Notes: generated by a model from the letters alone, not told the origin. Positions 9,529 through 30,308 are shown, numbered from the stretch's first letter. The stretch: 64,000 bases of DNA from Microbotryum violaceum (GCA_001244265.2 CDLV01000005.1:310001-374000), one strand, 5' to 3'. A program made the numbers and translations.

Positions 9529-11718
9529 CTAGTGCTTCGGAGGCGGAATCGCAATCACCACGAGGTTGACGACCATCGCAAAGATGCCCGAGATCCACCA
9601 CGCAGCGGCATAGCCTTGTTGAGGGTGGAAGCGGAACATTAACGCGTAGATGATGCCGCCCAAGTTGCCGGCCGCCCCGACGATACCAGTGATGATGCCG
9701 TTCGAATAGGGGACGCAGTGAGGTACCAAACTAAAGTTGAGGCCGTTGGCCATCTCGTTGAAGATAGCCATCACGACGATCAGACCGATCTGGAAGCCCA
9801 AAGAAGGGCCCTTCTTGTTGCCGTGGGTGAAGGCGTGCAGAGTGTGAAGACCGTAGGCGAGCGAGACGACACCTTGGAGGAAACCGCACGTCAAGGTCGC
9901 GTACTTCTTGCCCTGGGGGCCCCATCGTTTGCCGATCATGTCACCGAGGATACCACCCAGAGGTCGAGTCCAGACGTTGAGGAAGCCGAAGATCGAAGCG
10001 TAGTAACCGGCCTTGAGTTGACCAAAGCTAGGAGACTTGTGAACGGCAAACAGGACGTTGGCCAGGTTGGCATCGACAGCGAGTTCGAACCCGAATGTCG
10101 TCATGTACATGATGGAAGGCAGCCAAGTGTAAGGGGTCGTCGCGATCTTGAGCGTACCGGCGATGGAAGGCTTTTCCGCGACGGCAACGTCAATATCATG
10201 CAGTTGCTCGGCGACATCGTCATCGACGGCTTCTTGCACGGTCACCTTTGCCGCCTCCTTATCAGACATCTTTTGCTCGGCGATGCGTCGTTGACTCGCA
10301 TCGAGTGTGGTGAGGTGGCCGCGGGACATGGCGATGGAGCTTGCGGGCATGGTATGGCGCTCGGACCACTTGCCGGCCGGGCAATCGGTACCAAACACGA
10401 GGCAGAGGATGGCAACGAAGATGAGGATCGGGCAGGGAACGATCGCGAAGGCTGCGCGCCACGCCGAGTGCGACGAGAGACCGTCGTTGAGGAGGGCCTG
10501 GAAGAGAGCCACTTGGACCACAAAGGTGACACCACCTCCGAGATTACCTGTTGTAGCGAGGAAAAGCATCAGTAAACCGTATGCTCAACTGTTTTCGCGT
10601 TCGAGGGCGTTCTGAACCGACCCCAACCACCGGTGAAGGCGTTCGCAGTGCCAACGACGTTCTTGTCAAACATTGCCGTAGTCCAGGCTTGGCACGGCAC
10701 GAAAGTGGCACCAAGAATACCGATGAAGAAGCGGATGATGTAAAGACCTTTGTAATCGGTGATGGTACCGGCAAGACCCGAGGGGATCGCACCCAGAAGG
10801 AGGAGAGCGGCCATGACTTTTCGGGGTCCAAATCGATCGACGAAAGGTCCCATAATCAATCGAACACCTGAGCGAGACGGAAAAAACCAACCATTAGTTT
10901 GGTAGTCCTCAGTGGTATCATGGCTTCGCCAACTCACCAAGCGTGGACGCGAGGGCGGTGATGTTGGAGTTGCCGATCTGGGCGGTCGTGAGCTTGAGAT
11001 CGGTTTTGATGGCCTGTGTGATCAAATAGGGGGGTGCAAGCAGTCAGCTACTGGAGGCGCACCAATTAGACTTCAGCCAACACCACCTTCTGAATGCTTA
11101 CTTCGGGGATCAGAGGCGGGAAAGCGAACCAGGACAAGAAGGCGACGAAGAAGCCCAGCCAAGAGAGATGGAAGTTGCGCGTGTAGGGGTTCGCGAGGTC
11201 TGCACGGCCGATTCCATTTTCCAATCAGCGCTCGGTCCATGCGGCTAACGGGTCAGTAAAAGACGACCTACTGAACATAGGAAGGGTTTGAGATTTTCCA
11301 TTCAGAGGATTGACCTGAAGAGGAGATGATTGAAAAAATCAGCGTGCGTTGATCGGAGGCTGAGCACTGAAAACCGTAGGACCGAAGGAAGCTATTTCCG
11401 CCTCCTTTCCGCCCCCAAGTCCAAACTCGAGGCCCGTGCGTGGCCAGCTCGGAAATGGGAAATGACAGCCGACGGATCACTATATCGACTAAGGCGACGT
11501 GACGACGTGGCCGTGCCGCAGGGAATGGGATAGGTCAGGTAATTACTCACGACAGGCTTCTCCCACAAAGAAGCGATCCTGAACGAGGGAGGTTCGTTGT
11601 AGTTGAGCGTCGCATTGTTGGAGTTGACGCCTTTGGCCGCCTCGACGACGCCTTGGCTATCAAAGTGCGCGCTCGATGCGGACGATGAGACTTCCTTTTC
11701 ACGAACGATGGTCGACAT
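9529..11718 (-). CDS. NRT2: High-affinity nitrate transporter (MFS, NNP/NRT2 family)
   Basis: Motifs [56 protein letters not shown], nitrate signatures [16 protein letters not shown] and [22 protein letters not shown] and [10 protein letters not shown]. Multi-intron gene; ATG at 11718. Confidence 0.96.
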
Positions 11719-11889
11719 GATGACAAATCTTGAGTAGTAAGGGATACAGTTGACTGCCAAGACCGGTGTTGGAACAAGATGATGTGAAGAAAAGGAAGAG
11801 ACTAGGAGAGGGTGTGGAGCAGTGCAAGGTCTGCGATGGGTTGGTTTGGGATCAAAGGAGACGGGCGACGGTCGCTAACTGGTCGAACC

Positions 11890-12151
11890 GATAGAGCCCG
11901 CTATCGCAGATAGTCTAGGATAGTCGGGCGGGCCAGGCCAGACCTGGGTGATAAAGAGACCGCGAGCGTTTTACCTATCGACCGCGGTGATTGTCTCGGA
12001 TAGTGGGCTTTTCATTGATGCGCACCGATCCTGAGAGTGGTCCAGATTCAGATTCCGGCCTATCACATTTCTACCATTTGGATCGAGCCGACACGGACTC
12101 CGGACCCTTGTCAGTAGAGCGAGCTTGTGCCAGCGCAGCCCGACCTTTATC
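11890..12151. promoter_or_regulatory. Cluster of GATAR sites (AreA/Nit2-type nitrogen-regulation elements) upstream of NRT2
   Basis: GATAR/YTATC at about 11890, 11901, 11909, 11919, 11950, 11975, 11999, 12060 and 12147: nine sites in ~260 bp. Confidence 0.8.
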
Positions 12152-12232
12152 AGGCGCGCGCGCTCGCCAAGTCCGACACGGAACACGGAAGTGCGACGCA
12201 CAGCGGGGTCGTGTCGGGTCGCGCCGAAACGG
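12088..12232. promoter_or_regulatory. Three CCGA[A/C]ACGG everted-CGG motifs (putative Zn2Cys6 binding sites) in the NRT2 promoter
   Basis: CCGACACGG at 12088-12096 and 12173-12181; CCGAAACGG at 12224-12232; variant CCGAAGCGG at 12311-12319. The same motif occurs three times in the NiR/NR promoter. Confidence 0.7.
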
Positions 12233-12578
12233 AGGACCCTGCAGCAAGCTTTCTTGATCGTGATGATGTAAAGGCCCAGTAATTTCCTCCACTTACTCCA
12301 TGGGTTCAAACCGAAGCGGTCTTGACCACTCTCGGCCGGCGGTTCCGGCCAAGTTGGCTTTTTCACGGGCAAGTTTGGAACAGCGAGCGATGTTGAATTG
12401 AACAAGGAAGAGGAAGAAAGAATGCGACCAGGGTCTGAAATCCAAAGAAAAAACACGAGAGAGTAGAAACCCAATGTTTACACAGCCAATATTTCGACAG
12501 GTTCCCCACTAGACCAAGATCCGTAGAGCTTTCGCCAGCCACCACTTTGATGTACCCGCGGCGCGCATCCACCCCAAT

Positions 12579-15037
12579 TTACCTGGCCGCTTCAGAACCG
12601 AACATCAAATCGCGTTCCAAGTCATTCTTAGGCACTTCCTCATCGTGCGAGAAGGGTCGGTAGGATTGGACCGCCTCGGCGCCACCGGGGGATTGGAGAA
12701 TCTCCTCGCGGGAAGGAACGGGCAAGGCCGCGCTATCCTGTCGACGGGGAGCAGTGCCTTCGGTGCGAGTAGCGGGTTGAGCAGAGGGACGAACCTGGGT
12801 ACAAGGGTGGGTTGGGATAATAAGTCAGCCAACTATACGGTGAACTCAGGGCGTCACGGATGCAGCGAGGCCCCAGACACGAGCTAACCCAGGCTTTGAA
12901 ACTCACCATTCGCCTGAAGTTCTCTACCTCCTCGACAATCAAGGCCCGCATACCCTCAACCGAGTCTTCCTTCTCGAAGCCAAAGTCGAACTTCTGCGGG
13001 CACACGGGCTCGTCGCTCGGTTCGTGCCAAACGGCGAGGTAAGGGTGACGCAGGGCGTCCTCGCACGAGATGCGCTCGGTCGGGTCGAAGGCGAGCAACT
13101 TGGAGAGCATGTCGAGCGCCAAAGGGTTGGCATCGGGGAAGAGCTGCTCGAAAGGGACACCGTTCTTGTACGGCAAAGAGCGGATATAGTCTTGCGCCTG
13201 TCAGTTTGCGTGGGGTGTGATTCAGGGTCAGTCTCGGAGGACACGGGCTGGTCTCAGATAGGAAGACGGTTCGTACCCTGGGACTTCCGACTCGGCGGAG
13301 AGTGCGATCACTCGGCGTTCCGAGGAAATGGAGGACAATGTTGAGTTGATCGATGTAGTCCTTGCCCTTGAAGATGGGTCGACCACCGAGGAGCTCAGCG
13401 AGCACGCAACCAATACTCCAGACGTCGACTGCAAAGATAGTGGAAATCAATCACAGTCAGACACTGTCATCCACACGGCCAAAGAGACCGTACTGAAGAC
13501 TCAACTGGCTGTGGTGTAGTTGGCGAACGAGAGCATGATCTCGGGCGCACGGTACCAACGCGTAGCAACATACCTGTGCGGAGTGCATCACGACGTCAGT
13601 ATACAGCCGACGATAGCATCACGTCATCACTCACTCGGTCATGAACCCAGCGGCACCTTGCGCCGCCAACTCGGGGTCGGTCTCGAAACCACGGGCCAAA
13701 CCGAAATCGCAAATCTTGAGCTCGCAGTCGGCATTGACCTGTGGAGCGATGAGATGGTACTGTTCAGTGGTCCGGCTGAACGTAGTGTATTATGCTCGGT
13801 GTGTGAGCTTACGAGAAGGTTCCCTGGCTTGAGATCACGGTGCAAGACGTGCGCCGAGTGGATGTACTAGTAAAAGGGTAGACAGGCAAGAATGATCAAC
13901 TCGGTGTCAAGAGATCTCCTGCTGATAGCGTACACCGCGACGCACCTTGAGACCGCAGAGGGTTTGGTAGATGAAACTCTGGAAATGTGCATCCGAAAGG
14001 GGTTGTCCCGAACGAATCTAAAGACCATGACAGAAGCCAGTGAGTCCTCGGATTGCCGCGCAGTCGGACGTCTCGGAGTGTGAGACTCACGATGGCGTGC
14101 AAATCGGCTTCCATCAACTCCTCGTACAGGTAGCTGTGGTACCAGAGAGGGAAGAGTCAATATCAGATCGAGCTCTGCGATAGGTCTCGGCTTCATCAAC
14201 CTACACCGAGTCGAATCCGACGGGGTCGACGAGATCCATGTCATAAAGGCACGTGATCTAACAGCGGAACGACGGCCACAGTCAGTCTACGGTGCTCGGC
14301 TAAGGCGCAGACGACTGCACCTTTGACCCACGTTCTTGTGGCCCCGGAAATGATGCAGGAGCCTGTTGATTGGGGCACGTGATGGCAGAATATCAGCTCC
14401 TTTACGCAACTATCGACTCGGGCGGATCTCGGATTTTGAGGAAACTGACTTCAACTCTCGCAAGGCGCGCTTGGTAAGGATCTTCTTCTGGAAAACTTTG
14501 GTGACCTAGTGTATCGATGTGGAGACGGGCGCGGGTGAGTTCCGGAAACTGGTTGCCGCATGCACAGCTCCTATTCGTTTGATCTAGACGAGCGGGTTGA
14601 GGGCTGACCTTTTTGATGGCGACGGATTCGCCGGTCACGGTGCTCTTGGCCGAGCAGACGACACCATAAGCACCTGTGGATGGATCGGACATCATGATCA
14701 ATAGGTATTGCTTTTTGGGTCCGATTCGGCGACTGTGAGGCTGGGCAAGGCGGGGCTCGGCAAGGTAAGTGGGGTGCACAAGGCACGACCTCTTACCCCG
14801 CCTCTCATCCTTAACGTGACTCGAGAGGTGTCGTAGGTGGTTTGGCGGTCATTCCTGTTCGGTATGCTTGCAGCCCAAGAAGTGCGCGCATACGGTCCAA
14901 AGATGAAGCTTACCCTGGCCCAATTCCTTGACGAACTCGTAGGTGCTGTCGACGAGGAACGACTCGCTCAGGACGGGGAACGCGTGGCGCTGCACGCGGT
15001 GCACCGACGAGGCATGGCTGTTGGCTGCGGACGACAT
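12579..15037 (-). CDS. MPK1: Cell-wall-integrity MAP kinase (Slt2/Mpk1 type, TEY)
   Basis: Motifs [76 protein letters not shown] and [18 protein letters not shown]. The last exon ends ...[12 protein letters not shown] (TAA at 12579-12581). Confidence 0.93.
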
Positions 15038-15754
15038 CGTGTAGAAGAACACAGGAGTTGCTGGGGATAAGAAGTAAGAAGAGGATAGAGGGGACGACGG
15101 GTCGAGGACGAGGACGAGAGCCAAGAACAGCAGCGCGAGTCCACCGCCTGCCACTTTGTGCTTCCGGCCTGTCTCGCGCGCTCGATCGCTCGGGCCGGGG
15201 CTCGGATTGGGACGAGACCCTTTCCACTTTGGGAAGGAGAATGCACATACGATGAAATTCGCCGTATTGCTAAGAGCGTGCAAGCAGCACACACACACCG
15301 TAGAAACTATTCTCGTCATCACCGAACCAACCAGAGAGTTAATCTTGCAATACGAACCCTCACGGACGGCCGGGGCGATTGTTGCCGGTAGAACTTGTCG
15401 CTTGTCGGGCCGCCCCTGCCTCCTGAATTCCGATCCTGGACTCGGATCGCGAAGCATTTAAACTGATCGACAGCGTCGCTGATACTCGGCCATTAGGAGT
15501 CTCGGACACCGCGGGTATCTCACTTGAAGATTGGAGCTTTCACTTTCCAAGGCCATGAAAAAAGGTTCTGAGGCGTCATCAAGGTACAGGAGTCGCCGAG
15601 TAATTGAGGAAAAAGGTCGGCGCGGGAGGAGCAAGGAGCAAGGAAGAGGTCCGAGCTCAATTCCCCGCCCGAACTTGCGAAAGGCGCGCAAAGCGGCGTC
15701 GACCCGAGTGCGGCCCTGCCTTTCCACACACCCCACCACGCACCTGCTGCAACC

Positions 15755-17513
15755 ATGTCGTCCGTCATCTCGCTCCCCATCACCCTCGGTGCCCCACCCA
15801 AGGGCTACAAGGCCCCCGCATTCAAGCCTTTGTCGGGTACGTCCCCCCGCCCGCTGAATTTCCGCTTCACATGGGCCCCTTTTTTCCTCGCGCTTTGGCT
15901 CCGCACTCACGCACCTTCTTTCATCATGCAGCTGCCTCTACCTCGTCCAAGATCTTCCCCGCCGGACCTGCTTTCAACGCCCATGCTCGTCGGGCCTTGA
16001 ACCAGCACTCGTTCGACGACGACGACGCCGCGCTCTCTGCCGAAGCGGTTAAGAACGGCAAGCAGGTCGAGGAGGAAGACGACGTCGATGCCCACCTCGG
16101 CAACGAAAAGGAGGATAAGGAGATCCTTCAGTCCGACCCCAGGCAGTGGAAGTCGCAGGACCACTACGAGGTCCTCGGTCTTCAGAGCCTGCGCTACAAG
16201 GCCACCGATGAGCAGATCAAGAAGGCTCGTGAGTAGAACGGGCCCGTGGCATCGTTCCTGCCGATCCGCGTCCTAAGTCCTGTCATCTTGGTCTTCAGAC
16301 CGCCGCAAGGTGTTGCGTCATCACCCCGACAAGAAGGCTTCGGCCGGTGGTTTGGCCAACGACGACTCGTTCTTCAAGTGCATTGCCAAGGGTAAGGTCC
16401 CAAAGAAAGAGACCCCCGAACCTCCGACGGACACTGATCACTCTACGGACTCCCGTACATTAGCCATGGAACAACTTTCCAACCCTGAAAAGCGTCGTCA
16501 ATTTGACTCCGTCGACGAGGCTATTCCCGACGACATCCCCGAAGTCAAGGAGACCACCGCCGAGAACTTCTACGAGCTTTGGGGCCCCGTCTTTGAACGC
16601 GAAGGTCGCTTCTCCAAGGTCCAGCCGGTCCCTAGCTTGGGCAACAAGGACACGCCAAGGAAGGAGGTCGAGGCATTGTACGACTTTTTCTACAACATCG
16701 ACAGTTGGAGGTCGTTCGAGTACCTTGACAAGGATGCGCCCGAGGGTACTGACTCGTAAGTTTTCGCGTTTCACATGGGGATCAATGAGACCCGGTGTGG
16801 CATTAATATGCTTCTGGCGTATGTGTTACAGTCGTGACGAAAAGCGCCATCAAGAGAAGAAGAATAAGGCCGAGCGAGCACGCAAAAAGAAGGAGGACAT
16901 CGCCCGCGTTCGTGAGCTCACCGATCGAGCCCTCTCGCTCGACCCTAGGATTAAGCAATTCAAGGCTGAGGAGAAGGCGGCGCGCGCGGCCAAGAAGGGA
17001 GGTGTCTCCGGTGTCAGCCCCGCTGACTTGGAGAAGAAGAAGGAGGAAGAGCAGAAGGCCAAGGAGGAGGAGGCCAAGAAGGCCGCTGAGGAGGCACAAA
17101 AGGCCGCGGATGACAAGGTTTCGCGAGAGGCCGCCAAGAAGGCTAAGGCTGCGTAAGGCCTACCATGTTTCTACGTGTTGACGTGACTAAAGTACCCATT
17201 CTGATCTCCTGTTGTTCTTCTGCTTCACAGTGCCCAAAAGAACGTCAAGAAGGCGCAAAAGGCCATCTCGGCGCTCGTCACTTCCAACGACTACTTCGTC
17301 GCAACCGGCTCTTCCCCCTCCCCCGCCATCGTCGAAGGTCAACTCACCGAGCTCGACTTGCTCTACGGTGCCCTCGATGCCGAACAAGTCGCCGAGTTTC
17401 GCACCGAGGCCGAGGCCCAATCCTCGCCGGAGAAGATCAAGGGCGTCATCACGAGCTGGGCTAAGAAGGTCGAGGCCAAGGTTGGAGAGGGCAAGTTCAA
17501 GCAGTTTGCTTGA
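15755..17513 (+). CDS. ZUO1: Zuotin, ribosome-associated J-protein (RAC subunit)
   Basis: Motifs QSDPRQWKSQDHYEVLGL, J-domain HPDK, DDSFFKCIAK, PVFEREGRFSK, FFYNIDSWRSFEYLD and RDEKRHQEKKNKAER, followed by a charged middle domain. Stop TGA at 17511-17513. Confidence 0.96.
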
Positions 17514-17789
17514 ACGAGGCTCGTGCCCAAATAAATGGGTAGACAGGGCTTCGAGTTGATCTTATGATTTAATCAAGAAAGTCAACCCAAGGGCACTGCC
17601 TAGACATCCTCCGAGATCAGTTTATGAGATCATGAAAGCTGAGAAAGCAGATATCTTGGTTACAACAAACGCATGGCATCGTATCTCGTCCACGCCATGC
17701 GCTACACAACAGTACTATCTACTGATCATCTACGGAACCCATGAAAGCACCCGAAACTGATTGGCTCGACACCAACGAAGAAAGCCCCA

Positions 17790-20700
17790 TCACCCCCTCC
17801 AGTCCCAAATCGGGCCTCCAGCACCACCGCCGCCACCACCGCCGCCACCACCACCGCCACCACCACCGCCACCACCACCGCCACTGTTTATCCCACGCGA
17901 CACGCTGTACATACCCTCAGAATTTGGTCCGGTTTTGAGCTGCTGACTAGACACATGAAGATTGGGATCGAACGGCATCGTCGACGCCCATGCAGCAGGG
18001 TGGAAGCCACCGGTCGCAAAGTTCGTGAACGTCGCGAGCGACGGTACACCGTCATTAGCCGCACCCGTCAGAAACATGGATGGATCAAAGGCCTGGTGCA
18101 TCGTGTTGGGGAGCGATGTGGAGCCGTTCAACTGAGGCTGTTGGAGGCGATGATCGGTGAATGCCAAAGGCGAGGACGCGAAAGCTGCGGAAACGGATGA
18201 TGGTGGAGCCGTTGATGACGAGAACGGTGCAGGCGACCTGAAAGAGGCGTCGAACATGGCTTCGTACGACGTCTCGTCGAGATAGGTGGGTTGAGTTGCA
18301 GGTACGAGGACCGGCGAGTCGAACGGGGTGTAAAGTTCTCTCGCTGCGCTGGCCACATGATCACCTTGGGGCATCGCGCGTGGGGATAGAGGGGGTAGGA
18401 CCGTGGCGTTCACCCGTGGAAGTTGGTTGGCGTGTGTCGGGTGATTCGGTTGACTCGCCGTAGGGGACGGTGTTTCCACCGCCGAAGCCCCCGATCGACG
18501 CTTGGGCTTGCGATTTAGTCGAGTCGTCGTACCCAGAATCGACAACTCCGCATCCGTCCCCTTTCCTTTTGCGAGGTAGTCGCTAACTTGAGTCCGAGGT
18601 ATACCGGCCGGAACCGAGTGGGCGGCCTGCAGACTCTCAAAGGCGGCGTCCCGCAGAGCGTGAAGACGAGGGACAAACATCGCCACGGGGGCACCTCCGC
18701 CCGCCGCCGTCTCAAAGACGTCGATCGCAATCATGAGCTGCGTCCACGAATGCCGAGCCAATTTGGAATTGGGCGATTGAATCACGATAGAGGACTGGGC
18801 ACAGGCCGCCGCGAATGCCTGCGAGAATTCAGCAGATGCGGTCAGCGCCAGATCGCCGTCCAACCTTTCCCATGTGATTTCACTCACATGAAAGGTCGGA
18901 TGCCACCAACGAGGAGCAAGGGTCGGATGGAGATTGACCCACGCTCGGGCGATGGCCAGCATGTAAACTCCAGTCTCAAGGGCGACGACAGCGACTGATT
19001 CGGCCCACGGGGACAACAAGGGCTCGTCCGGGAACAGCTTCAAGGCTTGACGTAGCGCCGGCAGGTGGAGATAGAAGAAGATCTGCGAATAGATCATATC
19101 AAGCGTGTGTTGCCGCATGCGAGTCTTGAGCGGCGCAGACGAGGCTACAGGTTCAGGCAATTCGGGAGGGTCGCTCGGCCGAACGACGAAAGCGTCCATT
19201 GGCAAAGCACCAGAGCGCAGATCTTTGGGCGACTCTTCAAACATTTTGCGCAATTCCTGGTCCAATGCCAGCACGGTGGAGTATGCCGGGCTGACGACAG
19301 AGAAGCATTCGTCGATGACCCTCGCAATAAAGTTTCCCGTGCGCCACTTGTCGACATGATACGGTTCAGCCGATGAGGGGAACTTGGTGTCGAAATGATT
19401 CGGTGACATCATATATGGCCGACCGCTGATGAAAGCTTGCATCCGCTCAAGGGTTATGAGCTCGTAGAACGTCATTCTGCGACGTGACAGTCAACACTCC
19501 AGTCAGTCTAGTCCACACAGTGACCAAGTGGCAGACACCAATACAGCTCACCTTCTCTTGTCAAGCTCTGCCCCGTCCATTCCCCATTGACTCCCATCGC
19601 GATGAAGGCCCATGGCGACGAGCATCCGAAGAGCCATCCCGAGCAACGGGAAAAACGTCTCCCCGCCCTCCTGCAAATCGTGTGTATTTAATAGGAACGA
19701 GGCCGTGAGTTGCAGTGTTTGAACGCCGGCAAGAGTATTGTTGCTCAGAAACTTGGAAGCCGAAAGCGCCGATTGCGACAGCTGGAAGTAGTGGTGGGCT
19801 AGCGCGTTCGGTGTCGACGGGACACGTGGATCCATCAGGGAGCCGAGGGAGAGGACGATGAAGACGAAGGCGAGCTTTGTGCCAGCCGAGTTTCCCGTGG
19901 TCAATGCGGCGGGGAGATAATCATTGAAGAATGCCTCTTCTTCAACGGGCTCGAACTGAAAAGAGAGAAATTCGTAATAGTTCTTCACAAGTTGCTTGAG
20001 TTCGGCCGCGGCTGGAAGGAACGCTCTCAATCGCTCGAGCTCGTGGGTCCGCGAGTAGTAGGCGTGGAGCTGGATGAAGGGTGCTCGCACCTCTTGCGAA
20101 GCACGTTCGGGTGACGATGCGCTATCCGACTCATCTGAGCTGCCACCATCGTCCTGTTTCAGAAGGATCCGAAGGAGAGAGTGAGTTTTAAAGGTGCAGG
20201 CGTCGCCCGCAGTCGAAGAATGGTGGGGCTCCCGGCCTGATGGGCATTCACCTCAAAGTAGTACGCAGGACCGGCAGACGTTCCCAAGTACCTCACTCGG
20301 CCATCGTCTTCCCGAATCGACAACGAGCCAACGCCTGGCAACACAGCCTCGACCCCTGCCGCCTCGATATGTGTTTCGGATGCCCTCGAGCCGCCAAAAT
20401 CGTCCATCGTGTCGTCCCCTTCGCCATCGGCTTCGGTCGCATTCGAATTTTTGTTCAGGCTCCTTCCAGTGAACTCGAGTGTGAGCGGAGAAGGGATCCG
20501 GTCTGTGGCCCCGACGTCTTGGAGAGCGGCCTCGAGGTCCTCGCACCGCTTGAGCAAGGCGTTCATCTCGGCGTTGAGTCGGATTGCCCGCCCCGGGGGC
20601 TTGGAGACGCCGTGACTGCACCGAAAAGTAAAACATGAGCCGTACTGATGCTTGAAAGTGCGAACAAAAGTGTCCGAGCTCGACCGAGCGCTGGTGGCCC

Positions 20701-21178
20701 AATTCCAAGCTCGATGAAGATGTGGAATTGGATCTACATGGAGGTGTGGAGGGCTGCCAGCCGACTTACGGGCATAGATCTGCGCGCCCCCGCTTGCGGC
20801 ATTGGTTGCATGGCCACACCCGGTCGCACTTGAGCTTGAGCCTGGATCATTCAAAGTGGAAGGGGGCTCAACTCCAACTCGAGACGAAAGGAGCCATGCA
20901 TAGCCCCTGTAAACTGGTCCACACGCGCTGCCAGAGCCAGAGCCAGAGCTGGAGCAAATGATAAGCTCGCGAGAGGAGCCACCGCCGCGAGGAACGTACC
21001 TGCGGCATTCCTGACAGGACATGTGCGTCTTGGAGCGCTTGGATGACTTGCTGATGGCGGCTGCTGAGCCTGATCCTGAGCCGAGTGGGCTGTGGAGCGG
21101 CTCATCCGCCGGCGACGGGAGCACCGACGCTGCCGACGTCGAAGTCGAGCCCGAGGCCGGTGGTAGGCCAAACTCCAT
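17790..21178 (-). CDS. Zn(II)2Cys6 fungal transcription factor with middle homology region
   Basis: Spliced cluster SKRSKTHMSCQECRR|LKLKCDRVWPCNQCRKRGCADLCP|HG is followed by a coiled coil (EMNALLKRCEDLEAAL). The fungal-specific TF motif ALRMLVAMGLHRDGSQW...ELDKRR is present, then a Pro/Ser-rich tail and a poly-Gly run. Confidence 0.93.
17824..17883 (-). repeat. Imperfect (GGT/GGC)20 trinucleotide repeat encoding poly-glycine
   Basis: On the + strand, ccaccgccgccaccaccgccgcc... In frame in the last TF exon: NS-G20-AGGPIWDWRG*. Confidence 0.9.
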
Positions 21179-22028
21179 ACAGACGATCAGACGTCAATGC
21201 GTCAATCACGGGGCCACGACAACGGGTTCGATTCGGGATCAACGACCGCAGCAGCTAGGGGGTCGAGCCTGGTGCAGGTGCTGCCGCGGCTCGAGCAATC
21301 TAGTCAAGGGGGCAATTCTGACCGCGGAAATGGTCACGGGGTCGAGAAGCAACTCCGCCGGGAGTTCAAGAACGTTCAGGGCTGGCAGCTGTCTCGGAAG
21401 GTGGGCAAGACGGTTTCGATCGGGGCCACTGGAAGCGTCAAGAGCGCCGGGTGAATGGGCTTAGCGCAAACTCTTCTTGATTTTCTAATAACGTGGCAGC
21501 TCGCCCCACAAAGGTGAGCAGTTGCGCAATTTATGGCGCACAGACCAAAAGTGCCAAAGCTGCCGACCCCTCGGACCCGCTCAGACCATTTTCCAGACCG
21601 ATCTCAGACCGAATCAGAGCATTCCAGAGGGAATTTTGACCATTCTGGTGGATCTCAGCGGCACTCAGGAGCTCAGGAGGGAACGAACATTCAACAGAAA
21701 TATGTATGGAAAAATTTGACGGGAGCGTTTGGTATATGCTGTAGTACCTTCAAGATGCTGGTTCAGGCGGTGTCAGACCGCATCCGTCTGAGCGCCGCTC
21801 TTCAACAGACTGATCATGAGGGCGTCCGACTTAAGAGGTCTGATGATTCACTCGTTTCTAGACAGTTTCACTAGGTAGGAGGGTAGGACTGCAATTACAC
21901 GATACAAATATGGAAAAAATGATCTAAGAACAAAGTAAATTGTAACCCAAGGAAGAAGTACATGCTCAAACACACAGATGGAACAAAATTCAATGTCTAT
22001 ATTGAAAGAGTCTGCGCCGCTGGCTCGT

Positions 22029-25000
22029 TCACCACTCCAGTTTGTTCGAGCCACATCCACTACCGTTCTCGTGCTTGATCGCACAGTCATTACTAGCCGC
22101 TAATCTTTCCTCATCCAACTCTCCTGAAGGTCCCACAATCTCGATCGCCGTAGCCGAGTTCCGTCCCAGCGCCTCGGCCGTCGCCTTGCGGACCATCCAT
22201 TTGGTCGAGCCGATCAGCGCGTCGAGCTCCTCGGCGGGGGGCAATTTGACGAACAAATCCTCGCCTTCGTTCTTGACCTCGAACGCGAGCACCTTGTATT
22301 CTTCGTCGTTTGTGCATTCTCCCGTGTCGAGGCGGAAGTTGCGTTTGTGCAGCGGGCACGAGACGTAGAGGTTGCCATTGGCGTCTAGCGTCGGATGAAG
22401 ACTTCCCGTCAGCGAATATTCGGCATATGCACAGCAAGTATTAAACCCACTCACCATCTCCGATGATACCGTGTTCGAGTACAAAAGCACGCTTGTGAGG
22501 GCACATTTGCTGTGTAGCGAAATAGCCTCGTTTGGGAACGTGGAAAATTGCGAGCTGGGTGTCTTGCCCATATCGAACCGCCGCACTCCTGTTCGGGGTC
22601 ACAAAGCCGAGGTCGAGAATCACGTTCGTTTTAGACATCACATTCACCTAGTGATTCGTTCCCGAAGTGGAAACTTAGGTACAATCACTCACGTTGTGTT
22701 GGCCTCTGTGGGCATGAGGTCCTGCGTCGTAGCAAGATTGACCCACTCCCATTCCGAGCGAGGGGTCGGCACCTCGTTGTCCTCGAATCGCTTGGCGGGA
22801 AAGTTCTTGGGCCAGTCGGCGGGTCGATTCTGACCACGCTCGGTAATCGGCTCAATCCCGACGCGCCTCTCGTCGGTGTTGGCGAATTGCTTGAAGGACT
22901 TGCGCAGTTCGGGATGGGTGATAGCCGCAGCCCATTCGTCCTTGTAAGTGCCGATAAGCGCGTCCATCTCTCGGTCCAAGTCACCGCAGATGCCAAGCTC
23001 ATCGTCGAGGAGAATCTTCTTGAGCTTTTCGATACCTCCATCAAATTTTTCGACCCAGGGTGCCGTGCGCACCAAACGATCGGCGGTACGGATGTAGAAC
23101 ATGAGGAAGCGATCGATGATGCGAACGACCTTGGTCGGCGGGACATCCTTGGCGAACAGATGGGCATGGCGAGGATTAGCTCCACCATTTCCACCAATAA
23201 AGACTGCATATTTTGGTGAGACAGGTCTCATTAATTCGAATAGATCATTAGGACAAGTCTTCGGATCGGGGAACTCACCATTCCATCCTTTGTCGGTTGC
23301 GATGAGGCCAAAGTCCTTTGACTGGGCCTCGGCGCACTCGCGCACACATCCACTGACTCCTCCCTTGAACTTGTGGGGCGATCGCACACCTCGGTAGCGG
23401 TTCTCAAGGTCGATCGCAAGTCCGACCGAATCCCCGACACCATAGCGGCACCAGGTGGTTCCCACACACGACTTGACTGTTCGCAGTGATTTACCGTATG
23501 CGTGACCCGACTCGAAACCAGCGGCGATCAGCTTCTCCCAGATGTCGGGCAAGTCGCGCTTCTGTGCACCGAAGAGGTCGATACGCTGGCCACCGGTGAT
23601 CTTAGTATATAGTCCATACTCCTTGGCGACCTGACCCAAAGCGATCAACTTCTCGGGCGTCACTTCACCACCGGCCATGCGCGGCACGACGGAGAAGGTG
23701 CCGTTGCGTTGGATATTGGCCAAGAAACGATCGTTGGTATCCTGAAGACCATGATGTTGCGGTAGCATGACGTGTTCGTTGTAGAGCGAGGAGAGAATCG
23801 ATGCGACAGCGGGCTTGCAAATCTCGCACCCCTGACGATCCTTGCCCGCACCGACCGTTGCGATAATGGTTGCAAAGTCGCGCAGCTGCTTGATCTTGAC
23901 CACTTGGAAAAGATCGGTACGGCCCATCTTGAAGTGGGTGCAGAGGTCGTTGTTGGCCGCGTGACCGGCTTTCTTCATTTCGGCCTTGAAGATGCTCGTC
24001 GCGAGTGGGACGCAGCCACCGCAGCCCGCGCCCACCTTGGTCTTGGACTTCAGCGTCGCAAAGTCAGTGCACCCGTCTTTGATACAAGCTCCGATGGCAC
24101 CCTTGAGCACATTCTGTATTGTAACATTGAAATACAAAATGTATCAGTTGGGATGCTGTCTGGCTAGCTGATATAGCTAGGTACTGACATGGCAGGAGCA
24201 GATTTGCGCATCATCGTCCAGATCGGCACCATCATCCTCGCCTTCCTTCTTGGCGCCCATGATGAACTCGGACGGGGGGCAATCGAGCTTCTTCTTCTTC
24301 TTGACGATTGAGACCATCTTGGTGAAGGAAGCGACGTCGCCGATCATGATCCCGCCGAGTAGATGGGTGCCATCGGCCGTGAAAATGTACTTCTTGTACG
24401 TCGACGAAAAGGGATCGTGGTAGGTCAAGCATTTGATGGGATCGTTCTTGGTGTCTCGAGGCCCTTTCTTTCGTCGACTAGGCTTGCTCGAAGCAATTTC
24501 GACACCCACCTCGACCTTTTTCTTCTCGGCAGCCTCGATGTCCTTGACCATGCGCTCGTCCGCAAAGTAGTCACCGAAAGAAGCGACGTCGACACCCATC
24601 AGCTTGAGCTTGGTGGAGAGATCGGGATCGTTCATCTTTCGAGGCGCATGGCCCGCTGTTTGAGTCTGTTGAACCGAACCGAATTGTGACAGTGAGCAAC
24701 TGGCACTGGTATCAAGTGACTCCGAAAGGAGCTTACGAGGTTGAATGCCAGAATATCGGCCATCTCCACCCCGGGGGCGATCAGGCCATAAGTCTTCCAA
24801 CAGGAAGCGATGTCAGTACCAAGTCACAAGGTTCGCATCGAAAACTACCCAGGATATCACTCACATTGCCTCTCCAGCTGGCGCATTCACCGATAGCGTA
24901 GATGTCTTGCTCGCTGGTCATCAAGTCGTCGCCAACGTCTATACCCCCTCTTCGTGCGCACCGAATCCCGCTCGCTGCGGCAAGGTCGTCCCGCGACTTG

Positions 25001-25974
25001 ATTCCGATAGCAAAGATCGTCAAGTCACTCTCAATGTGCTCGCCGTCACTTGTGGTGAAACCAGTGAAGACCTCTTGACCATTCTCGTCGGTCCGGGTTG
25101 TGATCGCTTGGGGTTCGCACTGTGTCAGGACTTTGACCCCCATGTTTTCAATCTTGCGCAGCACCAACTCGCCCGCAGAAGGATCGAGCTGACGATTCAA
25201 GGGGTAGTTCTGGCGGATCAAGATGGAGACGTCGGGAACACCGGGCATATCGTACACTGCCTTGGCGGCCTCGAGACCAAGTAGACCACCTCCGACGACC
25301 GAAGCCCGACTGATGTGGGGCAACTCGGCGTAGTCCATGATCGACTCGAGGTCGGCGATGTTGCGGTAGACAAACACACCGGTCGTCTTCTCGGCTTGCT
25401 CGATCGAGACGTAGGGTGGGAGACCTGCTCCAGAGCCGGTGGCGAGGACGAGGATGTTGTACGAAAAGGTGTTACCCCGGGACGTGCTGACCGTCTTGGA
25501 CTTTGAGTCGATCAAAGTGACTTGTTCCCCAACGTGGAAGGCGAATCGATCGGGTTCTTGTTCCGCGTACCAATTCGGGTCATTCAGGTACAGATCTTCA
25601 ACGTTGCGGTGTTGAAAATACTCGGTCAGCCCGACTCGGTTGTAGGCCAGGTGCTTCTCCTCGCCACAGGTTCGGATGAAGTAGCGCTTGTCTTGATCAA
25701 GATTGAGCACTTTTTCAATGAAGGCTGTGAAGGAGGTTGCGCAACAGAGTCAATACAAGGCCCTCTTCACTCCAGCACTTCGGATCTCGTGGTCCGATGC
25801 CGTTATGCGACCGAGATTTCACTGTCACTCGGCGACTTTCGAGGCTTTGGACCGGGTGGGGCACAGGAGGAGCTAGTACGACTTACCAATGCCAACCATG
25901 CCGAGTCCGACCACAAAAATCTGGATCCTGTTCGTCTTGGGGACATGGGTCGTGGAATTTGCGATTGGGACCAT
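22029..25974 (-). CDS. niiA: Assimilatory NAD(P)H nitrite reductase (FAD, [2Fe-2S], siroheme-[4Fe-4S], C-terminal Rieske-like domain)
   Basis: Motifs FVVGLGMVG, LAYNRVGLTEYF, VVGGGLLGLEAA, ICSCHNV, GAGCGGCVP, GCEICKP, TVKSCVGTTWCRYG, GGVSGCVRECAEAQ and Rieske QQMCPHKRAF...SCPLHKRNF. ATG at 25974 (MVPIANST). Confidence 0.97.
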
Positions 25975-26718
25975 CTTTTCGAGCGAGCTGGTAAGAGGTC
26001 GGGTACTGGCGGTCGGTGGTTGCTCGGCCCTGACCGTGCGCGCTTATCACCAAAGAGGTCTGTGCGGGAGAACGGAGTTGGGTGATCCGAGATTCAAGTA
26101 ATCGATGCGGTAAGAAGGCAAGCAAGCGCGGCCTGAAGTATGGTGCGATTTAGTGATTTGATGAGTTGCAACTTGTTGCGGTGAGTGGAAGACGAGAGGA
26201 GTGGTCGGGATAGCGGAGTAGCGATAGCCTCGGCGAGCTCGGCCAAGCCACGACCAGGGAAGCGATAGAGCCGACACGGGCTAGCGAGAAGTGCCGATGG
26301 GGTTTAAGCGATGATTTGAGCGAGAGCTGATTCGCTAGTGGGCCTAAGGCCGTGTCGGAGCTCTGCGACGGCGAGGCGAACGCGGGTCGAGGCCCGGACC
26401 CCGCCTTATCAGACGCGAAGATAGTGCTGATTGCGCCGACCTCCGAAACGGAGATCATCAGGCGTTTCGAGTGGGCTCCTGCACGGGTGTCCTTTTTATC
26501 AGAAACGGCTCGCTAGCGTTTGCGAGGTGTTGATGTGGAAGAATAGATTTGGCGATAGACTCGCGCAACGCCTCTATCGCATCCAATCGCCTTCCACCCT
26601 TATGTCTCTGACGATCGTGACAAGGTGATCCTCCACCTGGCACCCCTTCTTCAACACTCGGATCCCCTGCCTACACAGAATATCTCGAGGAATTGACCTT
26701 GTTCGAATTCGCTGCAAG
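25975..26718. promoter_or_regulatory. Divergent NiR/NR promoter with GATAR cluster and three CCGA[A/C]ACGG motifs
   Basis: GATAR/YTATC at about 26045, 26209, 26223, 26264, 26407, 26420, 26497, 26554 and 26575. CCGACACGG at 26271-26279, CCGTGTCGG (reverse) at 26350-26358, and CTCCGAAACGGAG at 26441-26453. Confidence 0.82.
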
Positions 26719-29700
26719 ATGAGCTCGGCGAGTTTGTCTTCCCTTACCTCGAGCGACTCGGAGGACCTTCAATCGCAAGGCTCGGCGGCTTCGACCGCGC
26801 CGACGAGTCTAGCCGCCACACCCGCGCCATCGTCGCCCAAGCAGAGTTCCAACGCTCTCAGCTTTACCGAATGCCGCACATCGGCACCAAAGGAGCCCGA
26901 CCATTTCAACTCGCTCCCATCCCCCTTTTATCCGGCATCACTCCTTTCGGCCGATGAGAAGCAGGAGCATCTCTTGCCCGCGTTGCCTTTGGAGTACCCT
27001 GCGTTGCCGGCAACGACGAGACCGGAGCAACCCTGCGACGCCGACAGGGGGACACCGGACGAGTGGATCGTGCGTGACGAGAAGCTGGTGCGATTGACGG
27101 GCAAGTGGCCCTTCAACTGCGAACCTCCTTTGCCTGATCTATGGAAGTCGGTGAGTTTTCAGAGATCACGTCTGACCTAACCTTCACAACGACTAGGGCG
27201 GGGACTGCCCGATGGGCGGGCCATTCAAGTCGCTGACCATTCTGAAACCGTTGATGCACACTCGCAGGGATTCTTGACATCGACGAGGTTGTTCTACGTC
27301 CGCAACCACGGAGTGGTGCCCAAAGTCTCGAGGCAAGATGCTGAAGCGTGGACGTTTGATATCGGAGGGTAAGTCGGAAGTCTTGGGCCTTTGCGTCGGA
27401 CTGATGCGGTAGGGACTAAAGGCTGACATGGGGTTGGGTCACATTTTCTTCTTGTCGCGCACGCGCACGATACAGCCTCGTCAAGCGCCCCTGCACATTA
27501 TCCCTCGCCGACTTGCTCGATCCCTCTCGTTTCAATGCGGTAACCCTTCCTGTGACGCTGGTCTGCGCCGGCAACCGACGCAAGGAGCAGAACGTCGTTC
27601 GCAAGTCGCTCGGCTTCTCCTGGGGGGCGGCTGGCCTCTCGACAGCGCTGTTCACCGGTGTCTACTTGGCGGATGTACTTGACTACGTCTGCCCCCAAAA
27701 CGAAGGCAAGATCGGCCAACCTGGCTTCAAGCGCGCCGAGCATGTCATCTTTGAGGGGGCCGAGAACCTGCCGAACGGCAAATACGGAACGTCCCAGCGT
27801 CTGAGGTGGGCAAGGCTTCGGGAGAAGGGGATGATGCTGGCATGGGCCATGAACGGAGAGGTGCATCTTTCACAATAGAGAATTCCACCCTCTTCGACTT
27901 AATACTGACCGGTCTTGTCATGTTTTCACGTTAGGCACTCGAGCCTGATCATGGCTACCCGCTTCGACTTCTTGTGCCGGGCCAAATCGGGGGTCGAAGT
28001 GTCAAGTGGCTCAAAAAAATCATCGTCAGCGACAAGGAGAGCGATCATCACCTGCATTACTGGGACAACAAGGTCCTGCCCACCACCTTGATGCCTGAGC
28101 AAGCGAGAAGTGAGCGACAGTGGTGGTATGATCCTCGGTGAGTGACTCGCGCCGCATGCTCTACAGCCAGAATATCGCAAAGAGTTGCTGACCCAGCCCC
28201 GATGCCCCCAGATACATCATCAATGACCTCAACACCAACTCGGCGGTCGCTTGCCCCGCCCACGACGAGCAGCTCGTCGTTCCAGTTCCAACCGAGGCGA
28301 ACCCCTCTCCGACTTACACCGTCCAGGGCTACGCATACGCAGGCGGTGGACGTCGCGTCACTCGCATGGAGATTACCCTCGACGACGGCGACACCTGGTC
28401 TCTTTGCGACATTCGATACCCGGAGGACGACTACCGTCAGATGCCCTTCTCGGCACCCGTCTGGGGCACGTTGGACATCACTGATCGAGATGAATGCTTC
28501 TGCTGGGCTTTCTGGAAGATCGAGATCCCCATCGAGAAGCTCAAGGACGCCACCTCGATCGCTATCCGAGGTATGGATGAGGGTCTGAACTTGCAAGGGA
28601 AAACAATGTACTGGAAGTGAGTCGGATGGTTTCGGAACTGTTCAAACACTTCCCGAATGGTGAATGCTGACACCCCCTCCTTCTCTATCATCTTGCTCAC
28701 CAGCCCCACTGGTATGATGGTAAGTCCAGAGGTTTGTCTCCCATTGTTCTCTCGGAATTTATCATTGACATATCTATCGTACTCTTGGATCACAGAACAA
28801 CTGCTGGTTCAGGGTCGTGATTCACTCCTCAATGTCCGAAACCGGCGAAACAGTTCTTCGATTTGAGCACCCGACCATGCCGGGTTCGCAACCCGGAGGA
28901 TGGATGGAGCGAATGAAAGATAACGGCGAGGATATTCTTCGACCCCAGTTTGGTGTCGTACCCACAGGAGAAGAGAGTGAAATCCTCTTGCAGTCAAAAG
29001 AGTCGGCCAAGCTGAAGAAATCGACCGTCGTCATGACCAAGGAGGGCGTCACTCGCAAGATCACGATGACCGAGGTGCAGGCTCACAACAAGGAGAGCGA
29101 ACCTTGGTTCGTCGTCAAGGGCGAGGTGTACGATGGCACGGGCTTCCTTGCCAAGCACCCGGGTGGCGCGGAATCGATCACGCTCGTCGCCGGCGAGGAT
29201 GCCACTGAAGACTTTACGGCCATCCATTCCATTGTAAGGCGACGCGAGATAGGGCATCTGGTAGACGTGAGCTAATGCAGATAGTGTTCCACCCGTAGGA
29301 CGCAAAAGCACAACTTGCCGACTATCACATTGGCACGCTCGTCGTTGAGGAAGCCCCCTCCGCGGTTGTGCCCTCCACACCTACCCTCCCCGATCCTATC
29401 TTTCTCAACAAGTCCAAGTGGAAAGCTGCAACGCTGATCTCGATTGAGAAGCTCAACCATGACTCGCGCAACTACCGCTTTGCGCTGGAGTACCCTGAAC
29501 AGCAGCTCGGCTTGCCAACGGGGCAACACGTTTACGCTCGCTTGCGCCGGAAGGTCTCGCCGAGCGACGCCGAGGACAAAGGTGGTGTACCGATCGTCGA
29601 GGGCGAGCTCGTGCAACGTGCCTACACGCCGGTGTCATCGAACACTGCTCAAGGCTTCTTGGACCTTTTGATCAAGGTCTACTTCCGCACGCCCGACTTC

Positions 29701-30308
29701 CCGGAGGGCGGCAGGATGACCCTCGGGTTCGACGAACTTCAGATCGGCGACAAGGTTGAGTTTAAGGGTCCTCTGGGAAGCTTCCGATGGCTTGGGAAGG
29801 GTATGTGCAACTGGAAGGGCGTTAAGAGAAGCGCGCGGAATATCGGGATGATCTGCGGCGGTTCAGGTAAGCTATTTTACCCGTCTCAGCTTTAACTCGC
29901 GCGGGTGACTGAGCAAACCCAATATGTCTCGTCTTTTCAGGCATCACCCCCATCATCCAGGTCATGCGAGGCATCATCCACGACTCTGAAGACATCGATA
30001 CGAACGTTTGGGTCTTGAACGCGAACAAGACCGAGGCGGACATCCTCTTGCGAGCCGAACTCGAAGAGCTCGGCAAGCTCGTCGGCCCTTCGCGGTGTCG
30101 CCAGCACCTCGTGCTCTCCAAAGGTCCCGCAGATTGGGCGCACTCCAAAGGTCGCATCAACAAGCAGATGTTGATCGACCACCTTCCCCCACCGGGACCC
30201 GATTCCTTGGTGTTGATCTGTGGCCCCGACCCCATGATCAACGAGATTATCAAACCGGGGTTGGCGGAGCTAGGATGGGATGTACCGAATACGTTGGTAA
30301 TCTTTTGA
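26719..30308 (+). CDS. niaD: Assimilatory nitrate reductase (Moco, cytochrome b5 and FAD/NAD(P)H domains)
   Basis: Moco domain: LVRLTGKWPFNCEP, FYVRNHGVVP, TLVCAGNRRKEQN, DHGYPLRLLVPGQIGGRSVKWL, YAYAGGGRRV, CFCWAFW. Cytochrome b5 domain: HPGGAESI. FAD/NAD(P)H domain: LGLPTGQH, RAYTPVS, ICGGSGITP, ICGPDPM. Confidence 0.98.

Follow-up and report, generated by a model that had tools for sequence, protein, structure and literature searches.

A 64,000-base stretch of the Microbotryum violaceum genome, in the following called the window, harbors a nitrate assimilation gene cluster whose two promoter regions share the nine-base word CCGA(A/C)ACGG (CCGAMACGG). Three copies lie upstream of the NRT2-type nitrate transporter gene and three in the divergent promoter between the genes for nitrite reductase (NiR) and nitrate reductase (NR). 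The statistical evaluation supports this word as a real, non-random feature common to the two nitrate promoters, and it very probably represents a shared functional cis-element. Our preferred interpretation, at a rough probability of 45%, is that of an everted upstream activating site (UAS) for nitrate induction, which may be read by a Zn2Cys6 zinc-cluster transcription factor encoded within the same cluster in concert with a GATA factor. Binding, dimer formation, the nitrate signal, and the synergy of the two factors are what we infer from the form of the word and its genomic context.

An exact search of both strands of the window returned seven copies of CCGAMACGG. Six of them fall within 1.5 kb of nitrate promoter, and none was found in the other intergenic regions of the window. 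The two promoters and the sites therein are as follows:

11719..12464: intergenic region upstream of NRT2, bounded by the NRT2 ATG and the 3' end of the adjacent kinase transcript contig (the contig of run X17 starts at 12465), with seven HGATAR sites and copies 1-3
12088..12096, plus strand: motif copy 1, CCGACACGG, 370 bp upstream of the NRT2 ATG
12173..12181, plus strand: motif copy 2, CCGACACGG, followed by a second ACACGG half (CCGACACGGAACACGG), 455 bp from the NRT2 ATG
12209..12217, minus strand: near-copy CCGACACGA with one mismatch, of uncertain membership given that one-mismatch words are unenriched in the window
12224..12232, plus strand: motif copy 3, CCGAAACGG (CCGAAACGGAG), 506 bp from the NRT2 ATG
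25975..26718: divergent NiR/NR promoter, 744 bp, with eight HGATAR sites and copies 4-6
26271..26279, plus strand: motif copy 4, CCGACACGG, immediately preceded by a GATA word (GATAGAG-CCGACACGG)
26350..26358, minus strand: motif copy 5, CCGACACGG on the minus strand (CTCCGACACGG)
26443..26451, plus strand: motif copy 6, CCGAAACGG, at the centre of the 13-nt palindrome CTCCGAAACGGAG (26441-26453), i.e., CTCCG-AAA-CGGAG

Copies 1-3 occupy 145 bp. Copies 4-6 occupy 181 bp with their midpoint at 26361, only 15 bp off the midpoint of the divergent promoter, and are located at distances of 297-469 bp (NiR) and 268-440 bp (NR) from the respective ATG. The agreement extends beyond the core in two cases: GATCGAGCCGACACGG (12081) and GATAGAGCCGACACGG (26264) are identical at 15 of 16 positions, and CCGAAACGGAG is common to both promoters (12224 and 26443). 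Apart from these, the flanks agree weakly among the six copies. An initial annotation of this DNA had reported three copies per nitrate promoter, the long match, the second extended word, and the inverted repeat, all of which were reproduced here, as was its single further copy at about 37465. The latter (37465-37473, minus strand) was the only seventh copy obtained and lies inside the reading frame that encodes a P-type cation ATPase; it is most simply taken as a chance copy, given 1.83 expected in the window.

Because the motif was first picked by eye, an accumulation of functionless copies by chance or shared local composition had to be weighed, with the window as the sole background for the rarity of the word. 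Single copies do occur by chance, as in the ATPase coding region and in a metagenome locus described below (L001; one copy, with at least one in 87 of 200 shuffles). Dinucleotide-preserving shuffles of the window contained 1.83 copies on average and five at most, so that none out of 100 reached the observed seven; the chance rate of about one per 65 kb given in the initial annotation was slightly low. On the level of the single promoters, 0.021 copies are expected in 792 bp on the NRT2 side and 0.016 in the 744 bp between NiR and NR, and three or more appeared in 1 out of 20,000 and 0 out of 20,000 shuffles, respectively. The selection by eye itself was addressed by a look-elsewhere test, in which all 9-mers with one two-fold degenerate position were counted on both strands and the smaller count of the two promoters was taken as score. 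The real promoter pair scored 3, a value not reached by any such 9-mer in 1,000 shuffled pairs (score 2 in 64, score 1 in 936). Together with the compact arrangement in three-site clusters, one of them central in a divergent promoter, these figures make an origin by chance very improbable.

De novo ranking of the k-mers shared by the promoters likewise revealed two enriched classes only, namely GATA-type words and this word. Its one-mismatch variants remain at background level (43.3 expected and 52 found in the window, a number attained in 11 of 100 shuffles), which can be held in favor of chance and equally implies that the exact word matters. The ACACGG/AMACGG and CCGAMAC halves follow the distribution of the full word, and CGGAG is about 2-fold denser in the promoters (4.7 per kb) than window-wide (2.3 per kb). 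Duplication of a promoter segment was considered as a source of the copies and ruled out. The longest similarity between the promoters spans 19 nt (17 identical) centred on the word, and in view of the lack of homology beyond these 19 nt, the copies do not derive from a duplicated segment.

Paired CGG triplets at fixed spacing are the hallmark of Zn2Cys6 sites. As proposed initially, all six promoter copies display this form, with two CGG triplets in everted orientation separated by a fixed spacer of 3 bp (CCG-N3-CGG). Out of the 32 CCG-N3-CGG words in the window, seven fall in the two promoters, and the corresponding words with N2, N4, N5, and N6 contribute none (0/19, 0/22, 0/13, and 0/25, respectively). 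Judged from this form, the word is probably read by a Zn2Cys6 protein. An element that is real and shared but serves another signal or another protein class, e.g., nitrogen starvation, an in planta cue, a nitrite/nitric oxide response, or a repressor, appears unlikely to us. The asymmetric spacer and the tandem ACACGG half after copy 2 would also fit a monomeric or non-zinc-cluster reader; the strict CCG-N3-CGG form and the presence of a Zn2Cys6 gene in the cluster speak against a different protein class.

The word is embedded in GATA clusters, as had been noted before: HGATAR occurs seven times in the NRT2 promoter and eight times in the NiR/NR promoter, compared with 1.5 per kb window-wide. 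The two promoters rank with the GATA-richest parts of the window, and one stretch inside NR equals them at eight sites per 750 bp. This third stretch (28650-29400) extends over exons and an intron (28617-28794, a joint of run X19) of the nitrate reductase gene and may reflect chance or an intragenic GATA cluster. The two promoters also share a GATA-containing word:

12147..12158, plus strand: TTATCAGGCGCG, with its twin TTATCAGACGCG at 26406-26417, 11/12 identical (blastn)

Including its flank this word reads TTATCAG(G/A)CGCG, and each twin is located 26-37 bp upstream of a motif copy. The contigs of run X19, which are spliced (GT..AG joints) and stem from a relative about 5% divergent in coding sequence, cover NRT2 to at least 11908 and NiR to at least 26107. 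This coverage stops short of the copies, and the motif clusters are thus beyond the parts shown to be transcribed. From contig size and exon structure, the X19 contigs may end at about 11950-12000 (NRT2) and about 26250 (NiR), such contig ends not showing true RNA ends; if these estimates hold, the copies would sit a short way upstream of what is transcribed. Of the four runs compared with the window (X15, X17, X18, and X19, out of 24 listed), the DNA-like X15 is identical to it throughout the two promoters.

The genes served by the two promoters were identified by Pfam scans of open frames, tblastn with orthologues, and direct reading of the sequence, with the closest listed proteins (97-99% identity) belonging to Microbotryum silenes-dioicae:

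9529..11718 (start approximate), minus strand: NRT2-type MFS nitrate transporter, ATG at 11718, several introns
22029..25974, minus strand: NAD(P)H nitrite reductase (NiR), ATG at 25974, exon 1 at 25974-25887, intron at 25886-25725
26719..30308, plus strand: nitrate reductase (NR), ATG at 26719, with Oxidored_molyb, Cyt-b5, and FAD_binding_6 exons and the stop at 30306-30308

The order NR, NiR, three genes, NRT is that described for M. lychnidis-dioicae by Perlin et al. (PMC4469406), and all three nitrate genes of that species are reported to be up-regulated in planta during infection (PMC4469406). This joint up-regulation during infection, not on nitrate, is the only published expression finding encountered, and would suit an element responding to a different signal. 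The same holds for Ustilago maydis, for which a single-step, inducer-independent control of nitrogen genes was proposed in the section concerned (PMC2219887). On the other side, the window contains the word solely in its two nitrate promoters, apart from the coding copy at 37465. Overall, we consider nitrate as the signal slightly more likely than not.

Between NiR and NRT2, and thus inside the nitrate cluster, a transcription factor gene was found that had been overlooked in the initial annotation:

17790..21178, minus strand: Zn2Cys6 + Fungal_trans transcription factor gene, candidate binder of the word, between NiR and a zuotin-like gene
about 21178-20999, 20843-20769, 20620-20252, and 20156-17793, minus strand: factor exons, the last block with one more short intron

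Its zinc cluster (C-x2-C-x6-C-x5-C-x2-C-x8-C) is split by the intron between exons 1 and 2, which is why a simple pattern scan missed it; the identical stretch is found in the M. silenes-dioicae orthologue P0001 (955 aa), which matches the four exon blocks of the window at 95-100% identity. Fungal_trans (PF04082) was detected with an E-value of 3.9e-12 on the window exon and 2.6e-17 on P0001. A profile of 13 family members aligns with the DNA-binding dimer of Hap1/Cyp1 over zinc cluster, linker, and coiled coil (Hap1 residues 1-77, E 4.8e-8). By these sequence features, the gene is predicted to encode a Zn2Cys6 transcription factor with linker and coiled-coil dimerization element, the dimer itself being a prediction. 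As an observation on the gene model, the 3' end of the factor gene enters a simple repeat (17726-17946) that encodes a glycine run in the frame of the factor. The contigs of three out of four runs compared (X15, X17, and X19) break or carry loose ends at 17827-17884, and this repeat is probably variable in length or hard to assemble.

The factor family is distributed throughout the Microbotryomycetes. Searches with 16 and 39 listed matches retrieved orthologues at 45-59% identity from Microbotryum, Sporobolomyces, Rhodosporidiobolus, Rhodotorula including R. toruloides (P0023), and Phenoliferia, and a profile search of 1.84 billion representatives gave 424 proteins at E <= 1e-30. All 10 proteins sampled from 150 listed profile matches were unnamed basidiomycete zinc-cluster proteins, and a protein-cluster search returned only generic basidiomycete Zn2Cys6 clusters. 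Second, lower-identity family matches in Rhodosporidiobolus poonsookiae and R. nylandii resemble paralogues. Among the listed factor matches (one representative per 90% cluster) none belongs to Rhodotorula mucilaginosa, a species reported to be devoid of nitrite reductase and nitrate transporter (PMC6476726), and its close relative R. dairenensis does carry the factor. The factor could have been lost together with the nitrate pathway in R. mucilaginosa, which we regard as a lead only.

Linkage of factor and NiR was evaluated as locus-tag distance between the factor matches and the best 120 of 8,000 NiR matches in 12 comparable species. This measure assumes that tags run along the contig, as borne out for Microbotryum by the window itself, and R. 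toruloides was excluded from the count since its factor and NiR tags belong to different strains. The factor resides one to three tags from NiR in five of the 12 species:

Microbotryum silenes-dioicae: 08107/08108
Sporobolomyces johnsonii: 000888/000889
Rhodosporidiobolus (Rsp.) azoricus: 003084/003086
Rhodotorula babjevae: 001470/001468
Rhodotorula pacifica: 006063/006060

In three further species (Rsp. poonsookiae, Rsp. odoratus, and Rsp. nylandii) both genes are 22-37 tags apart on contigs of equal listed size. That this linkage persists across two orders, while the factor itself retains about 50% identity, speaks for a functional connection without proving it.

These data also bear on the identity of the reader. 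An unlinked Zn2Cys6 factor could serve the nitrate UAS instead, e.g., a true NirA/NIT4 orthologue with the half-site spacing shifted from N0 to N3, which would leave the cluster-linked factor as a mere neighbor. Precedents exist, as NirA and NIT4 are described as unlinked to their targets in Aspergillus nidulans and Neurospora crassa (PMC5611559), U. maydis has a predicted NIT4-like gene that lies outside the cluster (PMC2219887), and a 'NIT4' orthologue class was scored in Rhodotorula genomes (PMC10662464), each according to the portions of these articles available. Three of the six copies contain the CTCCG/CGGAG arm known from NirA and Yna sites, factor and NiR are located on different contigs in four out of 12 species, and a NirA or NIT4 name is attached to none of the 39 listed factor matches and none of the 10 sampled profile matches. 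An unrelated neighbor, in turn, would hardly stay within three genes of NiR in three Sporidiobolales genera and Microbotryum at about 50% protein identity. We therefore estimate an unlinked reader to be rather improbable, and the assignment of the cluster-linked factor as the reader to fall a little short of even odds.

Several observations weigh against a nitrate UAS read by the cluster-linked factor. Regarding the sites, the AMA spacer is asymmetric and the flanks are weakly conserved, so a symmetric homodimer is not demanded by the sequence, and copy 4 would lie only about 20 bp from the estimated end of the NiR contig, a very short distance for a site that would activate NiR. Regarding the factor, Pfam Zn_clus scored 20.6 bits on P0001 against a cut-off of 21 despite the presence of all six cysteines, and its 849-bp upstream region holds neither a motif copy nor an HGATAR site and thus no hint of autoregulation. 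The cluster is loose, with two unrelated genes (zuotin-like and protein kinase) between the factor and NRT2, and the species with factor and NiR on different contigs are Rsp. ruineniae, Rsp. lusitaniae, Phenoliferia psychrophenolica, and Phenoliferia sp. In a metagenome scan with the factor-family alignment, which narrowed 578 pattern matches to one confirmed locus (L001), a factor relative was found that has no nitrate gene within 10 kb upstream and 5 kb downstream, so the family also occurs outside nitrate clusters. For Rhodotorula toruloides, the 200 bp preceding the NAR1 ATG are reported to confer full nitrate regulation, and the excerpts of the same article mention no NAR1 motif from MEME across the Pucciniomycotina (Johns et al., PMC5073140). 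Copies 4-6 in the window occupy the stretch 268-448 bp from the NR ATG; as far as the excerpts on NAR1 go, they neither support nor exclude the word in R. toruloides.

Two further observations concern the loci named above. L001 (10001-14250) is located on a metagenome contig of 62% GC and encodes a relative 37-63% identical to the factor. The gene between NRT2 and the zuotin-like gene (12465-15937, minus strand) gave a weak protein-kinase match in Pfam (4.9e-05, below the cut-off) and is interrupted by 12 or more short introns (61-240 nt, with CT..AC joints in runs X17 and X19), an unusually dense arrangement compared with its neighbors.

In the preferred interpretation, the six CCGA(A/C)ACGG copies would act as upstream activating sites joining NRT2, NiR, and NR in one regulon, each CCG-N3-CGG copy being read by a dimer of a Zn2Cys6 protein, most likely the factor of 17790-21178. 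We propose that this factor is made constitutively, because its promoter is free of both motif and GATA sites, and that nitrate would activate it to bind the three-site clusters. The cluster central in the NiR/NR promoter would act in both directions and the other one would act upstream of NRT2, with the factor cooperating with a GATA factor of the AreA/NIT2/Nit2 type on the surrounding seven to eight GATA sites. The initial annotation had postulated a distinct nitrate-induction element acting with the GATA clusters. This remains the best reading on the basis of form and context, given that the word differs from the NirA site, has Zn2Cys6 form, and lies among GATA clusters. The designation of the element as a basidiomycete one proved too wide, as the evidence comes from one Microbotryum locus.

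Our literature search returned no pathway-specific nitrate regulator or DNA site defined in a basidiomycete, nor did it find the exact words as a motif; among fungi, an understanding of nitrate control exists for three ascomycetes according to the available part of a comparative study (PMC5611559). A speculative and on present evidence rather unlikely extension is that the Microbotryomycetes recruited a Zn2Cys6 regulator of their own, unrelated by descent to NirA/NIT4 and Yna1/Yna2, reading an undescribed CCG-N3-CGG site. If true, Basidiomycota would thereby gain their first defined pathway-specific nitrate regulator and response element, and the nitrate cluster would have captured a factor independently once more. 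The pair is concrete: a 9-bp site occurring naturally in six copies, and a candidate reader with an orthologue, P0023, in the genetically tractable yeast R. toruloides, in which inducible expression from the NAR1 promoter is already standard. Should the pairing hold, it would offer a rational handle on nitrate-inducible promoters of red yeasts and add a case to Scazzocchio's question of why and how often the nitrate cluster captures regulators. Because NRT2, NiR, and NR are up-regulated when Microbotryum infects its plant host, the element may in addition serve as an indicator of the nitrogen status encountered there.

The Hap1/Cyp1 DNA-binding domain (PDB 1hwt, 2hap, and 1qp9) is the best solved-structure match of the factor N-terminus; Hap1 itself recognizes CGG triplets repeated in direct orientation 6 bp apart, and the likeness concerns domain architecture and not site preference. 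In the sites of N. crassa NIT4 (TCCGCGGA) and of the yeast proteins Leu3 (CCG-N4-CGG) and Pdr1/Pdr3 (CCGCGG), everted CGG triplets are likewise read by Zn2Cys6 dimers, but with a spacer of 0 or 4 bp versus 3 bp here. The NIT4 site has one match in the window and none in the nitrate promoters.

The arrangement resembles the niiA-niaD region of A. nidulans, a divergent NiR/NR promoter with several short CGG-containing sites among many GATA sites, where central sites act both ways through a Zn2Cys6 activator and the GATA factor AreA (PMC3020322; PMC2040219 citing Punt et al. 1995; PMC4559421; in the sections available). The word differs in being 9 bp long with everted triplets and a 3-bp spacer, and the NirA consensus 5'-CTCCGHGG, as given in the accessible text of PMC3020322, has eight matches in the window and none in either nitrate promoter, which confirms its absence as noted initially. 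Moreover, nirA is unlinked to its cluster, whereas here a Zn2Cys6 gene lies inside; a trait of the NirA/NIT4 orthologue group is a nuclear export signal with a conserved methionine (PMC4488483).

In terms of gene organization, a likeness is found in yeasts. The nitrate-UAS of Ogataea (Hansenula) polymorpha, described in the part of PMC4559421 at hand as a 9-nt UAS in the promoters of the cluster genes (5'-CGGAGAATA, CGGAGA box), is read by Yna1/Yna2. Its sequence CGGAGAATA does not occur in the 64-kb window, and CGGAGA has a single promoter match, which corresponds to background density. Further differences are the lone CGG of the Ogataea UAS as opposed to the everted pair here and the number of factor genes (two versus one here), and the organisms belong to different phyla. 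What both systems share is a zinc-cluster regulator gene within the nitrate cluster, with two of the six copies here ending in CGGAG. Yna1 and Yna2 are in-cluster Zn2Cys6 regulators and not NirA orthologues (PMC4559421; PMC5611559), and in Kuraishia non-NirA Zn2Cys6 regulators with a UAS of their own were recruited into the nitrate cluster according to the available text (PMC5611559), so that the window, with a zinc-cluster regulator gene between NiR and NRT2, resembles both of these yeast clusters.

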